DNA of 64,000 nt from Candidatus Aenigmatarchaeota archaeon (GCA_016432325.1 CP066684.1:810770-874769); one strand, 5' to 3'; positions 13,213 through 41,282 are shown, numbered from the stretch's first letter. The notes: generated by a model from the letters alone, not told the origin. Made by a program: numbers and translations.

Positions 13213-13318
13213 TGGTAGCGGGGGCACGATTTGAACGTGCGACCTCAGGGTTATGAGCCTTTAGCCAGCGTGCAAGAAGCACGTTGTCTGCGAGCACTCC
13301 AGGCTGCTCCACCCCGCT
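13213..13318 (-). tRNA. tRNA-Met(CAT) initiator with 28-nt intron at 29/30 (13260-13287)
   Basis: A1-U72 pair; anticodon stem CAGGG/CCCTG is restored after removing the intron; TTCAAAT T-loop; encoded CCA. Confidence 0.92.
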
Positions 13319-13341
13319 ATGAAGTAGACTGAGAAAATAGT

Positions 13342-13935
13342 CTATTTAACCGTGTCGAACGCCCGCATCTCTGAAATCTCCAGAGCCAGCTCCGTTGTCG
13401 GCGCGGCGTCGGCTTTCGCGGGGCGGAACTTTCTTACGGCCAGTCTGAGCGCTTCGTCAGGACCAGTGTAGCCGCCGAAGCGCAACTGCATCTCCATAAT
13501 CGGTTTGGCGGCCGGTGTGAACGGTATGCCGACGCTTTTCAGCGTGTGGTATATCTCATCGAGGGTTTTAGGTTCGATTTCTGTAGCGTTGTAAGATGGC
13601 CTGAAGCCTGTCGCGCCTCTCTTATTGTAGACGTCCCACTGGTGGAACTTGTACTCGTATGCCTTGTCGTGCAGCTCTCCGGGCATGCCCTCGTGCTTCT
13701 CGGCCCGCGGGTCTTTCTCCACGCATTCGATGGGCCCGTCTTCCGCGATGGATAATCTCTTCGCGCATTTGTAGACTTTGCTCTGCGATGCATCGAAGGC
13801 GCGGAGCCTGCGGCTGTTGGCTATGAAGGGAAGGCTCGGTCTCAGCTTCAGGCCATGGAACTCGTCTATCGTATCAAGAAGCGGGGTATCCAGAGGGTCA
13901 GCGATGTCTATCGGCTTGCGCGGACTGGTTGCCAT
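13342..13935 (-). CDS. Orphan hypothetical protein
   Basis: ~197-aa ORF filling the spacer, with a TATA-like AT tract upstream; no recognised motif. Confidence 0.65.
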   Translation of the reverse strand: MATSPRKPIDIADPLDTPLLDTIDEFHGLKLRPSLPFIANSRRLRAFDASQSKVYKCAKRLSIAEDGPIECVEKDPRAEKHEGMPGELHDKAYEYKFHQWDVYNKRGATGFRPSYNATEIEPKTLDEIYHTLKSVGIPFTPAAKPIMEMQLRFGGYTGPDEALRLAVRKFRPAKADAAPTTELALEISEMRAFDTVK

Positions 13936-14038
13936 GCGTTGCACCAGAACGGTTTAATACCCAAACGGATAAATAGCCTTCATGTTCGCCCGTTCGCGTC
14001 ATGGCTCCCGGAACGGGGATAATGGAACCCGCGGTTCC

Positions 14039-15157
14039 ATGTTTGCCAGTTACCAGTCGTGCTTTTCGTGCAAGGCCCGCTATCGCGCGAACGAGCGCGT
14101 CTTCCGCTGCGAGCGCTGCAAAGGCTCGCTCTTGCTCGTGTACGACAGGCTGCCGCAGAGGAAGGCCGTGCGTTCGAAGGCCTTCGCGCTGACGCGTCCT
14201 CACCATTGGAAATACTGGATGTTCTATCCTGTTAGGCGCGAGCGCGCCATTACGATGGAAGAGGGAGGCACGCCTTTGTTGCAGAGCAAGACGCACAACC
14301 TGTGGTTCAAATATGAGGGTGAAAACCCGACCGGTTCTTTCAAGGACAGGGGCTCTACAGTCGAGATAACGCATGCGAAGGAGTTGGGCGTCTCGCGCGT
14401 CCTGTGCGCTTCGACAGGCAACATGGGCGCGTCCGTTGCCGCGTACGCTTCACGCGCACACATGCAGGCCGAGATATGGCTACCGAAAGGCACGCCTCCT
14501 GTAAAGACGCGACAAATAAAGGCGTACGGCGGACGCGTGGTGCGCTACGGGCGCACGTACAACGAAACACTTGAGAAGACGTTCGAGCTTGCGAAGCGCG
14601 CATATCTTGCAGGCGATTACGCTTACAGACTCGAAGGACAGAAGTCTGTTGCGTTCGAGATTGCGGACCAGCTGAAATGGCGGGTGCCCGATTACGTGGT
14701 CGTCCCTGTCGGCATGGGCACTCTTGCCTTCGCCACGTACAAGGCGTTTGCGGAACTCGAAGCGCTCGGCTTGACGAGCAGGATGCCGCGGCTCGTTGCC
14801 GTGCAGGCTGCCGGCTGCGCACCTGTCGTTCAGGCGTTCGAAAAGAATTCGCACATGATAATACAAGTCAATAATCCGAGAACAATCGCGTCTGCAATCA
14901 ACTGCGGCTATCCGAACTATGGTCATGAGGTTCTGCGCGCGCTGCGCAAGACGAAGGGCTTAGCCGTGGCCGTTACTGACAAAGAAATCATTGCGGCGCA
15001 GCGCGCGCTTGGCAAGGAGGGAATTTTCGCCGAGCCCGGAGGCGCGGCTTCGTACGCCGGATTTTTGAAGGCGGGCTTGAAAGGCTCTGTGGTCTGCGTA
15101 GTAACGGGTTCTGGACTGAAGGATCCGTTTGCTGGCGCGAAGAGGCGATCAAAATGA
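14039..15157 (+). CDS. thrC: Threonine synthase
   Basis: NPTGSFKDR (PLP Lys), ASTGN, VPVGMG, N-terminal CxxC pairs. An alternative in-frame ATG at 13982 lies in a duplicated start. Confidence 0.9.
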   Translation: MFASYQSCFSCKARYRANERVFRCERCKGSLLLVYDRLPQRKAVRSKAFALTRPHHWKYWMFYPVRRERAITMEEGGTPLLQSKTHNLWFKYEGENPTGSFKDRGSTVEITHAKELGVSRVLCASTGNMGASVAAYASRAHMQAEIWLPKGTPPVKTRQIKAYGGRVVRYGRTYNETLEKTFELAKRAYLAGDYAYRLEGQKSVAFEIADQLKWRVPDYVVVPVGMGTLAFATYKAFAELEALGLTSRMPRLVAVQAAGCAPVVQAFEKNSHMIIQVNNPRTIASAINCGYPNYGHEVLRALRKTKGLAVAVTDKEIIAAQRALGKEGIFAEPGGAASYAGFLKAGLKGSVVCVVTGSGLKDPFAGAKRRSK

Positions 15158-15600
15158 GCCAGGAACACTCCGCAGGCGCGATAATCTTCAGAAACGAGAA
15201 CGGTCGGCGCGTCTATCTTCTTCTCCACTACATTTCAGGCCACTGGGACTATGTGAAAGGCCACATAGAGAAGGGCGAATCCCTGGAAGAGACTGTCAAA
15301 CGCGAAACGATGGAGGAGACGGGACTGAAAGACCTGCGGTTCGTGCACGGTTTCCAGCACAAGATACAGTACTTCTTCCGCCGTGGCCGGACCACTGTAA
15401 CGAAGGACGTTGTTTTCCTGTTGGCCGAGACGCAAACCGCACGCGTAGTCGTTTCAGAGGAGCACAAGGGCTACGACTGGCAGCCTTACGCACAGGCGCT
15501 GGAGAAAACCACTTTTGAAACTGCGAAATCCGTCCTGAGAAAGGCCGAGGAGTTCTTAAACGTGTACGGGAACCAGAAAGTTCCAGACAATATTCGTTAA
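15154..15600 (+). CDS. NUDIX hydrolase (Ap4A hydrolase-like)
   Basis: KGHIEKGESLEETVKRETMEETG; SEEH. Confidence 0.9.
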   Translation: MSQEHSAGAIIFRNENGRRVYLLLHYISGHWDYVKGHIEKGESLEETVKRETMEETGLKDLRFVHGFQHKIQYFFRRGRTTVTKDVVFLLAETQTARVVVSEEHKGYDWQPYAQALEKTTFETAKSVLRKAEEFLNVYGNQKVPDNIR

Positions 15601-15802
15601 ACCCACGTTTTAAGTTTACGGTTGCCGCGGTAAATCGTTCCACGTCAGAGAAACGTTTCCACAGGAAATATACCCATAAATTAATCGGCGATTGACGTAT
15701 ATAGGGTTTTAAATGGTCGTCCCCCAGTTTAGGCTGTTCGAATGCCGAAACATTTGAACTTTTCGAACACGGTTCGAAAATACCCACTAGGGTGAAAAAA
15801 CA

Positions 15803-40216: not shown

Positions 40217-40243
40217 TCCGTTGCCGTTCGCTCTCGCTGACGC

Positions 40244-40765
40244 CTAGATTCTCGTTCCGTCAGAAGCCAGCATGACCTGGCACTGCTTGCAGAAGTCGAG
40301 TCCCTTCTCATCGACGTCGCTGAAGTGCTGGGCAACGGCCATCGCACACCTCTTGTCCTCGCAGTTCTTCAGGCCGAACATATGTCCTACCTCGTGCACG
40401 GATTCCTTGACCAGCCGCTCGGACGTGACGCCGAAGTTCATCTGGTTGCCGTAGAACGCGGGGTCCAGGCGGGCCGTAGAGACGATGCCGGGTCCCTTGC
40501 CGTTTGTCATTCCGAAAACGAAATTGAGATTTCCCGAGTAAAGGTCGGCGTTCGTGATGAGCAGGACCTTCGGGTCCCTGGCCAGTTTCAGGAGTGCTGC
40601 GGCGTCGTACTGTCCCCTGTACTTGTCGTAGGCGCTTTGCGGCAGGGGCACCTTCCTGTCAACGACAAACTTGTGGATGTAACCCCTTCTGTTCAATTCC
40701 TGAGTAAGAACGTCCATGTATTTCTTGGGGACGTCTCCTATCTCTATCACGCGAATTACGGCCAT
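40244..40765 (-). CDS. amzA: Archaemetzincin-like peptidase
   Basis: RGQYDA, LNFVFG, HEVGHMFGLKNC....CAM, FCKQC. Confidence 0.85.
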   Translation of the reverse strand: MAVIRVIEIGDVPKKYMDVLTQELNRRGYIHKFVVDRKVPLPQSAYDKYRGQYDAAALLKLARDPKVLLITNADLYSGNLNFVFGMTNGKGPGIVSTARLDPAFYGNQMNFGVTSERLVKESVHEVGHMFGLKNCEDKRCAMAVAQHFSDVDEKGLDFCKQCQVMLASDGTRI

Positions 40766-40826
40766 TGTATCGCGTTCTGTACGCGGCGAAGGCTTATATA
40801 CGTTTCATTGAAAACGAACTTGTCAC

Positions 40827-41066
40827 GCCGCGGTAGCTTAGCGGAAGAGCGCGTGAACCTTTGGCTTGCTAAAGGTCGCGAGGCTGTTAACCACGAGGTC
40901 GTCGGTTCAAAGCCTTTTGCGCCAATGCACGTAAGTAAACGCGCAAAAGCCTCTAGGGAAAGTCCGCCTGTGCACGGAAATGCCGGGCATTTCCGGCATG
41001 TCGGGAACGTAGTTCCCGTACACCGGCACGGAAGCGCGAACCTCGAGAATCCGACCCGCGGCGCCA
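40827..41066 (+). tRNA. tRNA-Asn(GTT) with introns at 30/31 (40856-40882, 27 nt) and 59/60 (40912-41049, 138 nt)
   Basis: 75-nt cloverleaf after removal; perfect CGCG/CGCG BHB helix for intron 1. Confidence 0.92.
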
Positions 41067-41071
41067 CAAAT

Positions 41072-41282
41072 GGAGATGTAGCTCAGACCGGGAGAATATG
41101 AAAACTTCGGTTTTCAACTTACGATTACATCGTAAGCCCGCAAGCGCACGGCTGAAGAATACGAAATGTTCGCATTTCGATTTTTCGGTTGCGTCAGAAA
41201 CCGTGCTGTCGCGTGTTCAAACAAGGGGTACTTCGTCACCCTTGAACCCCACGACGGGTTGAGAATCACGCCATCTCCACCA
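41072..41282 (+). tRNA. tRNA-Phe(GAA) with three introns: 22/23 (41095-41142), 37/38 (41158-41199), 59/60 (41222-41265)
   Basis: BHB helices CGGG/CCCG, CTGA/TCAG and TTCA/TGAG; 77 nt after removal. Confidence 0.93.

Follow-up and report, generated by a model that had tools for sequence, protein, structure and literature searches.

Archaeal tRNA genes with several introns each have been described in Thermoproteales, ARMAN-2 and Asgard archaea, and the tRNA genes considered here, from a 64-kb stretch of DNA of Candidatus Aenigmatarchaeota archaeon (hereafter the window; GCA_016432325.1, CP066684.1, positions 810770–874769 of an 874,869-bp single-contig genome with a completeness rating of 90%), are an extreme case of that known type. 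For Thermoproteales, the reports relayed in PMC4090602 and PMC3239211 (Sugahara 2008, Fujishima 2010) describe intron transposition and up to three introns per gene. In ARMAN-2 (Micrarchaeum), 56% of the tRNA genes are disrupted and the splicing endonuclease EndA is of the epsilon2 type, with three units in ∼390 amino acids (aa) (Fujishima 2011, PMC3239211). For DPANN archaea with alpha4 EndAs, the available text of Kaneta 2018 (PMC5829648) links inserts in the enzyme to more tRNA gene disruption, notes incomplete tRNA sets and anticipates hidden disrupted genes in lineages with a loop-bearing alpha4 enzyme; in that text, Aenigmatarchaeota lie outside the analysis. Asgard lineages carry ∼2.2 intervening sequences per tRNA gene (bioRxiv 10.64898/2026.10.13.758758), in a study whose scope excludes DPANN. 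We found no paper on Aenigmatarchaeota tRNA introns in the literature, and all of the intron positions seen here have already been reported in Crenarchaeota or Nanoarchaeota (PMC4090602).

The relatives of the proteins encoded in the present genome were Candidatus Aenigmatarchaeota (DPANN), mainly groundwater metagenome-assembled genomes. As in Thermoproteales, to the extent that the sources above describe them, bulge-helix-bulge (BHB) or relaxed introns occupy positions 22/23, 29/30, 30/31, 53/54 and 59/60, and near-identical introns occur in different tRNA types; the lineage, however, is DPANN rather than TACK, and it has one alpha-type EndA without the Crenarchaea-specific loop instead of the (alpha-beta)2 enzyme given there for Thermoproteales. 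Like ARMAN-2, it is an ultrasmall DPANN archaeon with non-canonical and relaxed motifs, tRNAs missed by standard tools and a tRNA-Ile(UAU) in place of the CAU species, whereas its EndA is a single 201-aa unit and its intron load is much higher. The Asgard lineages are similar in that many introns are missed by annotators, concentrate in the T-arm and have been gained repeatedly and recently. Based on the analyses below, we consider it very probable that the inserts are BHB-type, protein-spliced introns in working tRNA genes.

Eight tRNA genes were found in the window. Two are on the minus strand, for initiator tRNA-Met(CAU) (13213–13318) and tRNA-Pro(GGG) (18659–18844), and six are on the plus strand, for tRNA-Ala(CGC) (18960–19151, with a G3:U70 pair), tRNA-Ile(GAU) (19184–19293), elongator tRNA-Met(CAU) (19793–20018), tRNA-Thr(UGU) (20890–20965), tRNA-Asn(GUU) (40827–41066) and tRNA-Phe(GAA) (41072–41282). 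A search for a 7-bp acceptor pairing followed by N-CCA, with TTCRA inside, recovered all of them, including the 240-nucleotide (nt) Asn gene, and a genomic CCA was noted for the initiator Met, Pro, Ala, Ile, elongator Met and Asn genes. Each gene was then read against the cloverleaf and candidate junctions were scored for BHB geometry, in which a 3-nt bulge, cleaved behind its second base, flanks a 4-bp central helix (H) on either side, and outer helices follow on the exon side (h) and the intron side (h'). TATA-like boxes lie 24–28 nt ahead of every gene or gene pair, such as TTAAATA at 13343–13349 on the minus strand for initiator tRNA-Met. The Asn and Phe genes are probably co-transcribed, the latter beginning 5 nt after the CCA of the former.

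Seven of the eight genes, all but that for tRNA-Thr, carry 13 inserts in total. A preliminary description of this DNA had placed 13 introns in the same seven genes, and all genes and inserts were relocated where it had put them. In the anticodon arm, the canonical 37/38 position is occupied in Pro (18760–18804, minus strand, 45 nt; H 4/4, h 6, h' 5), Ile (19222–19254, plus strand, 33 nt; H 4/4, h 5) and Phe (41158–41199, plus strand, 42 nt; H 4/4, h 6), while initiator Met has an insert at 29/30 (13260–13287, minus strand, 28 nt, a single hairpin; H 3/4, h' 2 + 5 bp) and Asn has one at 30/31 (40856–40882, plus strand, 27 nt, a single hairpin; H 4/4, h' 8). A further Phe insert is found at 22/23 (41095–41142, plus strand, 48 nt, two hairpins; H 4/4). 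The two D-loop inserts, whose boundaries are uncertain by a few nt, are those of Ala at ∼15/16 (18975–19027 or alternatively 18976–19026, plus strand, 51–53 nt, a three-way junction, boundary ±1–2 nt; H 3/4, h' 4) and Met at ∼20/21 (19812–19911 or with an alternative end at 19906, plus strand, 95–100 nt, multi-hairpin), which has the weakest BHB of the set.

The remaining five inserts all interrupt the T-loop at 59/60, in agreement with the hotspot that had been proposed there: Pro (18676–18738, minus strand, 63 nt, three hairpins), Ala (19071–19134, plus strand, 64 nt; h 5), Met (19951–20001, plus strand, 51 nt, two hairpins), Asn (40912–41049, plus strand, 138 nt, a composite of several hairpin modules; h 5) and Phe (41222–41265, plus strand, 44 nt, two hairpins; h 5), with the T-stem as the outer helix in Pro and Met. 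Only in Phe do all four positions of the central helix pair; in Pro, Ala, Met and Asn three do, the unpaired one being R57 each time, which bears out the earlier count of four imperfect helices among five. Across the window, the length range of 27–138 nt held, but the statement that most inserts are multi-branched was overstated, since 6 of the 13 fold into a single hairpin, 7 have two to three hairpins and only ∼4 form true multiloops.

When the seven interrupted genes were spliced in silico, ARAGORN with default settings called all seven as tRNAs of 75–78 nt with the expected anticodons, which are the mature lengths predicted beforehand. On the raw window, the same program called none of the eight genes, and it makes no call even for the uninterrupted tRNA-Thr(UGU). 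The Rfam tRNA model exceeded its threshold for two genes in the window, tRNA-Ile with a 34-nt insert (57 bits) and tRNA-Thr (56 bits). Genome-wide, ARAGORN detected 3 tRNAs by default and 10 with its intron option, and Rfam detected 8, against the ∼45 genes obtained by the intron-aware census described below, so that the suspicion that standard callers miss these genes was justified. Rfam tRNA matches in 40 relatives ranged from 1 to 39 per genome, and the under-detection is therefore clade-wide. Aenigmatarchaeota tRNA sets are thus badly under-called by the usual tools, which skews completeness estimates and inferences on codon usage or host dependence.

For the census, the whole genome was scanned with a cloverleaf-constrained, intron-aware parser. 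Loose enumeration of BHB motifs alone had been dropped; since ∼16% of arbitrary junction pairs reach three of four central-helix pairs, the motif by itself cannot define introns, and for this reason the cloverleaf constraint was combined with a control on the reversed genome, in which 1 weak match was obtained against 35 genes in the real sequence. Removing the CCA requirement gained one real gene (Leu-CAG) along with many low-scoring false matches. Nearly all of the ∼45 tRNA genes have a genomic CCA; ∼43 (96%) are interrupted and 2 are not, compared with 'up to 87%' given in 2011 for Thermoproteales in the source text available. The total came to ∼97 introns, or ∼2.2 per gene, with 1 to 4 in each interrupted gene. 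Of these, 90 introns in 41 genes form a curated set, and two Leu genes read by eye contribute at least 7 more. In the curated set, position 59/60 accounts for 29 introns, 58/59 for three and 53/54 for two. With the two Leu genes included, a 59/60 intron is present in 31 of the ∼45 genes (∼69%), an occupancy that sets this genome apart from Thermoproteales, and T-loop introns interrupt 33 of the 41 genes in the curated set, or 35 of ∼45 with the Leu genes. The introns are also longer than those of Thermoproteales (median 48 nt, maximum 143 nt), often consist of several hairpin modules, and number at least four in one gene. The same census applied to G019, a complete genome of 832,879 bp from another family of the same order, yielded 23 CCA-bearing tRNA genes, 18 of which have a T-loop intron.

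A central helix with at least three of four pairs was found at 90% of the junctions and at 16% of shifted junctions, a comparison that is partly circular for the D-loop and anticodon-arm introns. Twelve of the 13 window introns combine a central helix of 3/4 or 4/4 with one or more flanking helices; the exception, the Met D-loop intron, is ambiguous (2/4 or 3/4). The curated 59/60 introns, 29 in number, end in the consensus YGARAA, and 28 of them have G at −5. In the arrangement that we propose for this site, the T-stem would serve as the outer helix, T54-T55-C56-R57 would pair with the last YGAR of the intron to form the 4-bp central helix, and the bulges would comprise A58, N59 and the first intron base on one side and the last two intron bases and N60 on the other. 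Since all tRNAs share the exon half of the motif, any intron with YGARAA at its end would be competent for splicing in each of them with no need for adaptation. A copy arriving at 59/60 would then be harmless because the T-loop offers a ready-made half of the splice motif, and the invariant T-loop may in this way account for both the 59/60 hotspot and the related introns in many tRNAs.

Comparison with relatives supported several of the junctions independently. The sequence of G001, a genome of the same genus, runs without interruption through three predicted junctions (Asn 30/31, Asn 59/60 and Phe 22/23), which are thereby validated without reference to the splice motif. Its Asn gene has an anticodon stem and T-loop identical to those of the spliced product predicted here, with the mature sequences agreeing except in the D-loop, and the D-arm of its Phe gene is identical to the predicted 22/23 splice product. 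The G001 Asn gene contains only a 37/38 intron, which is missing here, and lacks the 30/31 and 59/60 introns; its ortholog of the elongator Met gene has an additional 37/38 intron missing here, and its Pro gene, 72% identical over the full length, is interrupted at the same two positions. The comparison of Asn, Phe and Met thus points to conserved exons and to a gain and loss of introns inside one genus. The Asn–Phe pair adjoins the EndA gene in ∼50 Aenigmatarchaeota loci. In many distant relatives these two genes are intron-free, 72–74 nt long and without a genomic CCA, while in the closest five relatives the CCA is genomic and T-loop introns of 34–196 nt are present in 8 of the 9 Asn/Phe genes parsed. 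A search of 40 relatives for the Met exon and a BLAST search for the Thr gene returned little, these genes being too diverged.

We then grouped the introns into families, defined by at least 80% identity over at least 20 nt and by spanning different tRNA types. Thirty-six of the 90 curated introns (40%) belong to such families, some of which extend across D-loop, anticodon-arm and T-loop positions; in the Asgard lineages almost no families are common to different tRNA types, although the criterion used here is looser. Membership was concentrated in the T-loop, with 24 of 34 introns against 3 of 32 in the anticodon arm (Fisher p = 3e-7). The Ala 59/60 intron falls in the CCGGGCTTTC... family together with introns of Trp, Glu, Leu, Pro-UGG and Tyr. 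The 138-nt Asn, the Pro and the Leu-GAG 59/60 introns have a common scaffold, to which Asn adds extra hairpins, and parts of the Asn intron recur in other introns of the genome. One module is common to the Ser T-loop introns and the Met D-loop intron, and matches between introns of different tRNAs reached 79–88% over 60–95 nt. Beyond tRNA genes, just 7 short loci in the genome matched intron sequences at 80% identity or more, and at the sequence level the families are therefore largely specific to tRNA genes. No C/D-box guide RNA was found in the 90 curated introns.

These results also bear on why the 59/60 site is so heavily occupied. Randau and Soll reportedly put forward the idea that tRNA introns protect against integrating elements, and the hotspot could accordingly be held by selection instead of selfish spread, with a split T-arm destroying the attachment sites of viruses or plasmids in tRNA genes. 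This fits the data, including the frequency of T-loop introns in the curated genes and in the second family (18 of 23), and is compatible with the introns being spliced from working genes as preferred here; it predicts neither intron sequences common to different tRNA types nor rapid gain and loss inside one genus, and we consider it unlikely as the cause, while still deserving some weight. Somewhat more doubtful is that each 59/60 intron was gained long ago and inherited vertically, so that shared constraints and simple A/T-rich hairpin stems, instead of copying between genes, would be behind the apparent families. The conserved intron positions of the Pro gene in both species agree with such a history, as does the low complexity of many stems (e.g. 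GCTTTTT...AAAAAGC), but it is difficult to reconcile with the long matches between introns of different tRNAs, with the module shared by the Met D-loop and Ser T-loop introns, or with the Asn gene, which within the genus swapped a 37/38 intron for introns at 30/31 and 59/60.

The genome encodes one EndA, located in the window (38988–39593, minus strand) and present as its sole copy, as well as RtcB and, beside it, Archease. EndA is a 201-aa single unit with PF02778 and PF01974 that matches the M. jannaschii alpha4 enzyme best (1a79, E = 8.5e-30). N- and C-terminal EndA domains are joined in one gene, as in the alpha4 type with its ∼180 aa, while the single gene is at odds with an (alpha-beta)2 enzyme bearing the Crenarchaea-specific loop and the length of one unit is at odds with an epsilon2 enzyme. 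The alpha4 type is a homotetramer with strict BHB specificity; the present protein may be such a tetramer, and most of the substrates predicted for it are relaxed motifs. Its sequence shows strong conservation throughout the phylum. Between the catalytic Tyr and His, six residues rich in Lys are inserted, in gap-free alignment with the N. equitans alpha subunit. This insert does not vary among 12 Aenigmatarchaeota EndAs, regardless of intron load, and the Lys-rich loop (LKKGPKSAK) beside the catalytic His is likewise invariant. A single alpha-type gene with a Lys-rich insert in the C-terminal domain is also what the available text of Kaneta 2018 describes for DPANN alpha4 EndAs, and the insert may correspond to the 'L3' loop named there. 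In the pathway that we envisage, each gene or gene pair would be transcribed from its TATA-box promoter, the single EndA would cut within both 3-nt bulges of each motif, and RtcB with Archease would join the exons.

Several observations weigh against this pathway or against the proposed spread of the introns. Actual splicing of the inserts, and the role of EndA in it, are deduced from sequence. Both catalytic Tyr and His are present in EndA, but the residue equivalent to M. jannaschii K156 is Ala, leaving the Tyr-His-Lys triad incomplete, which is the chief objection to a simple model of splicing by EndA; the following residue, which is Arg, Lys or His in most of the Aenigmatarchaeota EndA homolog clusters, is Thr in this genus, and no second EndA-like gene was found in the 90% complete genome. 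The portion of Kaneta 2018 (PMC5829648) available makes no mention of a substitution of the catalytic Lys. As for the motifs, the intron-side helix at 59/60 is usually missing (mean h' 0.7), which makes the substrate a relaxed helix-bulge-helix (hBH), and in 13 of the 29 curated 59/60 motifs one of the four central pairs is mismatched. The Met D-loop insert has a poor motif, with H 2/4 at the junction homologous to one with 4/4 in G001, an alternative boundary giving H 3/4 with h' 4. The idea of the T-loop as a universal half-site is a correlation in one genome, among related genes that are not independent. The intron flanks are too short for ordinary homologous recombination, and no reverse transcriptase was found in the genome, so that no copying mechanism can be named.

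Some of these points would be explained if the inserts were removed not, or not only, by this EndA, the relaxed motifs being handled by another nuclease or an enzyme of the host: 119 of 120 homolog clusters have Ala or Thr as the K156 equivalent, which in this genus is followed by Thr, and most 59/60 motifs are relaxed. The enzyme has nevertheless kept its catalytic Tyr, His and Lys-rich loop under strong phylum-wide conservation, the junction signature is exactly of the EndA-substrate type and no other candidate enzyme was identified, and we regard a different nuclease as improbable. That the interrupted genes are pseudogenes broken by repetitive hairpin DNA, with working tRNAs encoded elsewhere or imported from a host, is highly improbable, because, despite a second tRNA-Asn(GUU) with a canonical intron only, the incompleteness of the genome, the host dependence of DPANN archaea and an EndA without the canonical Lys, every interrupted gene except Asn is the only census gene for its anticodon, the genome would have ∼2 tRNAs without them, exons are conserved and introns diverged between species, synteny is phylum-wide, splice-motif signatures mark the junctions, promoters and genomic CCA are intact, and RtcB and Archease are kept.

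The preliminary description had named intact intronless copies of the same isoacceptors elsewhere, together with an absence of spliced reads, as the finding that would speak for pseudogenes. A second copy was found for only one gene, tRNA-Asn(GUU), and it has a canonical intron itself; the window Asn gene is not a pseudogene, since it is the syntenic copy and matches the relative. Taken at the sequence level, the restored cloverleaves, the G001 junctions, synteny, the TATA boxes and the enzymes all point to introns of working genes and not to damage, as originally suggested. A wider scenario is more tentative, and on balance we lean somewhat against it in its full form: within one Aenigmatarchaeota order, modular hairpin introns may have colonised nearly every tRNA gene via the invariant T-loop half-motif, would turn over within a genus, and would be removed by a small EndA without the textbook catalytic Lys, perhaps using its Lys-rich loop. 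If true, the lineage would offer a natural example both of the way in which archaeal tRNA introns spread and of the acquisition of broad specificity by a minimal endonuclease. Since the lineage unites near-total tRNA interruption, one dominant site, shared families, within-genus turnover and a single unusual EndA, the arrival and spread of archaeal tRNA introns are more tractable here than in Asgard archaea, which have almost no shared families.

Among the other genes in the census, tRNA-Leu(CAA) (genome positions 757699–758067, 369 nt) is split by at least four introns, and its anticodon loop sits on a micro-exon of 8 nt. Both tRNA-Ile(UAU) (698587–698774) and tRNA-Glu(UUC) (624032–624224) have a 53/54 intron; of the three introns in the former, those at 53/54 and 59/60 lie in the T-arm and have a 4/4 helix each. 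No candidate for tRNA-Ile(CAU) was found in the census apart from the initiator and elongator Met genes, and AUA is therefore probably read by the UAU species, as in ARMAN and Nanoarchaeum. The second tRNA-Asn(GUU) (730027–730135), the sole duplicated anticodon in the census, has a very different body with a canonical 34-nt intron and may be of foreign origin.

Intron-like or repeated tRNA sequences were also found next to genes. Upstream of the tRNA-Ala gene, a tandem copy of its first 12 nt is followed by a diverged double hairpin (18903–18959, plus strand), so that the repeat begins 57 nt before the gene and contains a diverged copy of the hairpins of the D-loop intron; a TATA box at 18872–18877 is positioned for the upstream copy. 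This duplication was rejected as an intron, because no BHB motif was found in any of 14 registers, and is probably a leader. Comparable upstream repeats of the 5' end were found for five further tRNA genes of the genome, and in tRNA-Leu(CAA) the first 15 nt are repeated upstream. Downstream of tRNA-Ile(GAU), the last 9–10 nt of the gene (GGTCCACCA) recur after 95 nt, past several hairpins (19294–19390). Directly after the EndA stop codon, a GCTTTTTCACAAAAAGC-like hairpin (38961–38989) matches part of the 53/54 intron of tRNA-Ile(UAU) and is one of the seven loci outside tRNA genes with intron-like sequence.

A genomic CCA is present in nearly all tRNA genes here, in the closest relatives and in G019, and a CCA-adding enzyme is still encoded in the genome; most other Aenigmatarchaeota orthologs of the Asn and Phe genes have no genomic CCA. 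The intronless tRNA-Thr(UGU) of the window has an odd T-loop, GGCAGAG (G54, G55), and an odd D-loop, AGCTAGTA, without G18G19. The tRNA-Thr(CGU) (genome positions 784209–784450) and tRNA-Cys (190592–190700) likewise combine G55 with a D-loop without GG, while a relative from another family has a normal tRNA-Thr(UGU), and the combination looks like co-variation of the elbow contacts.

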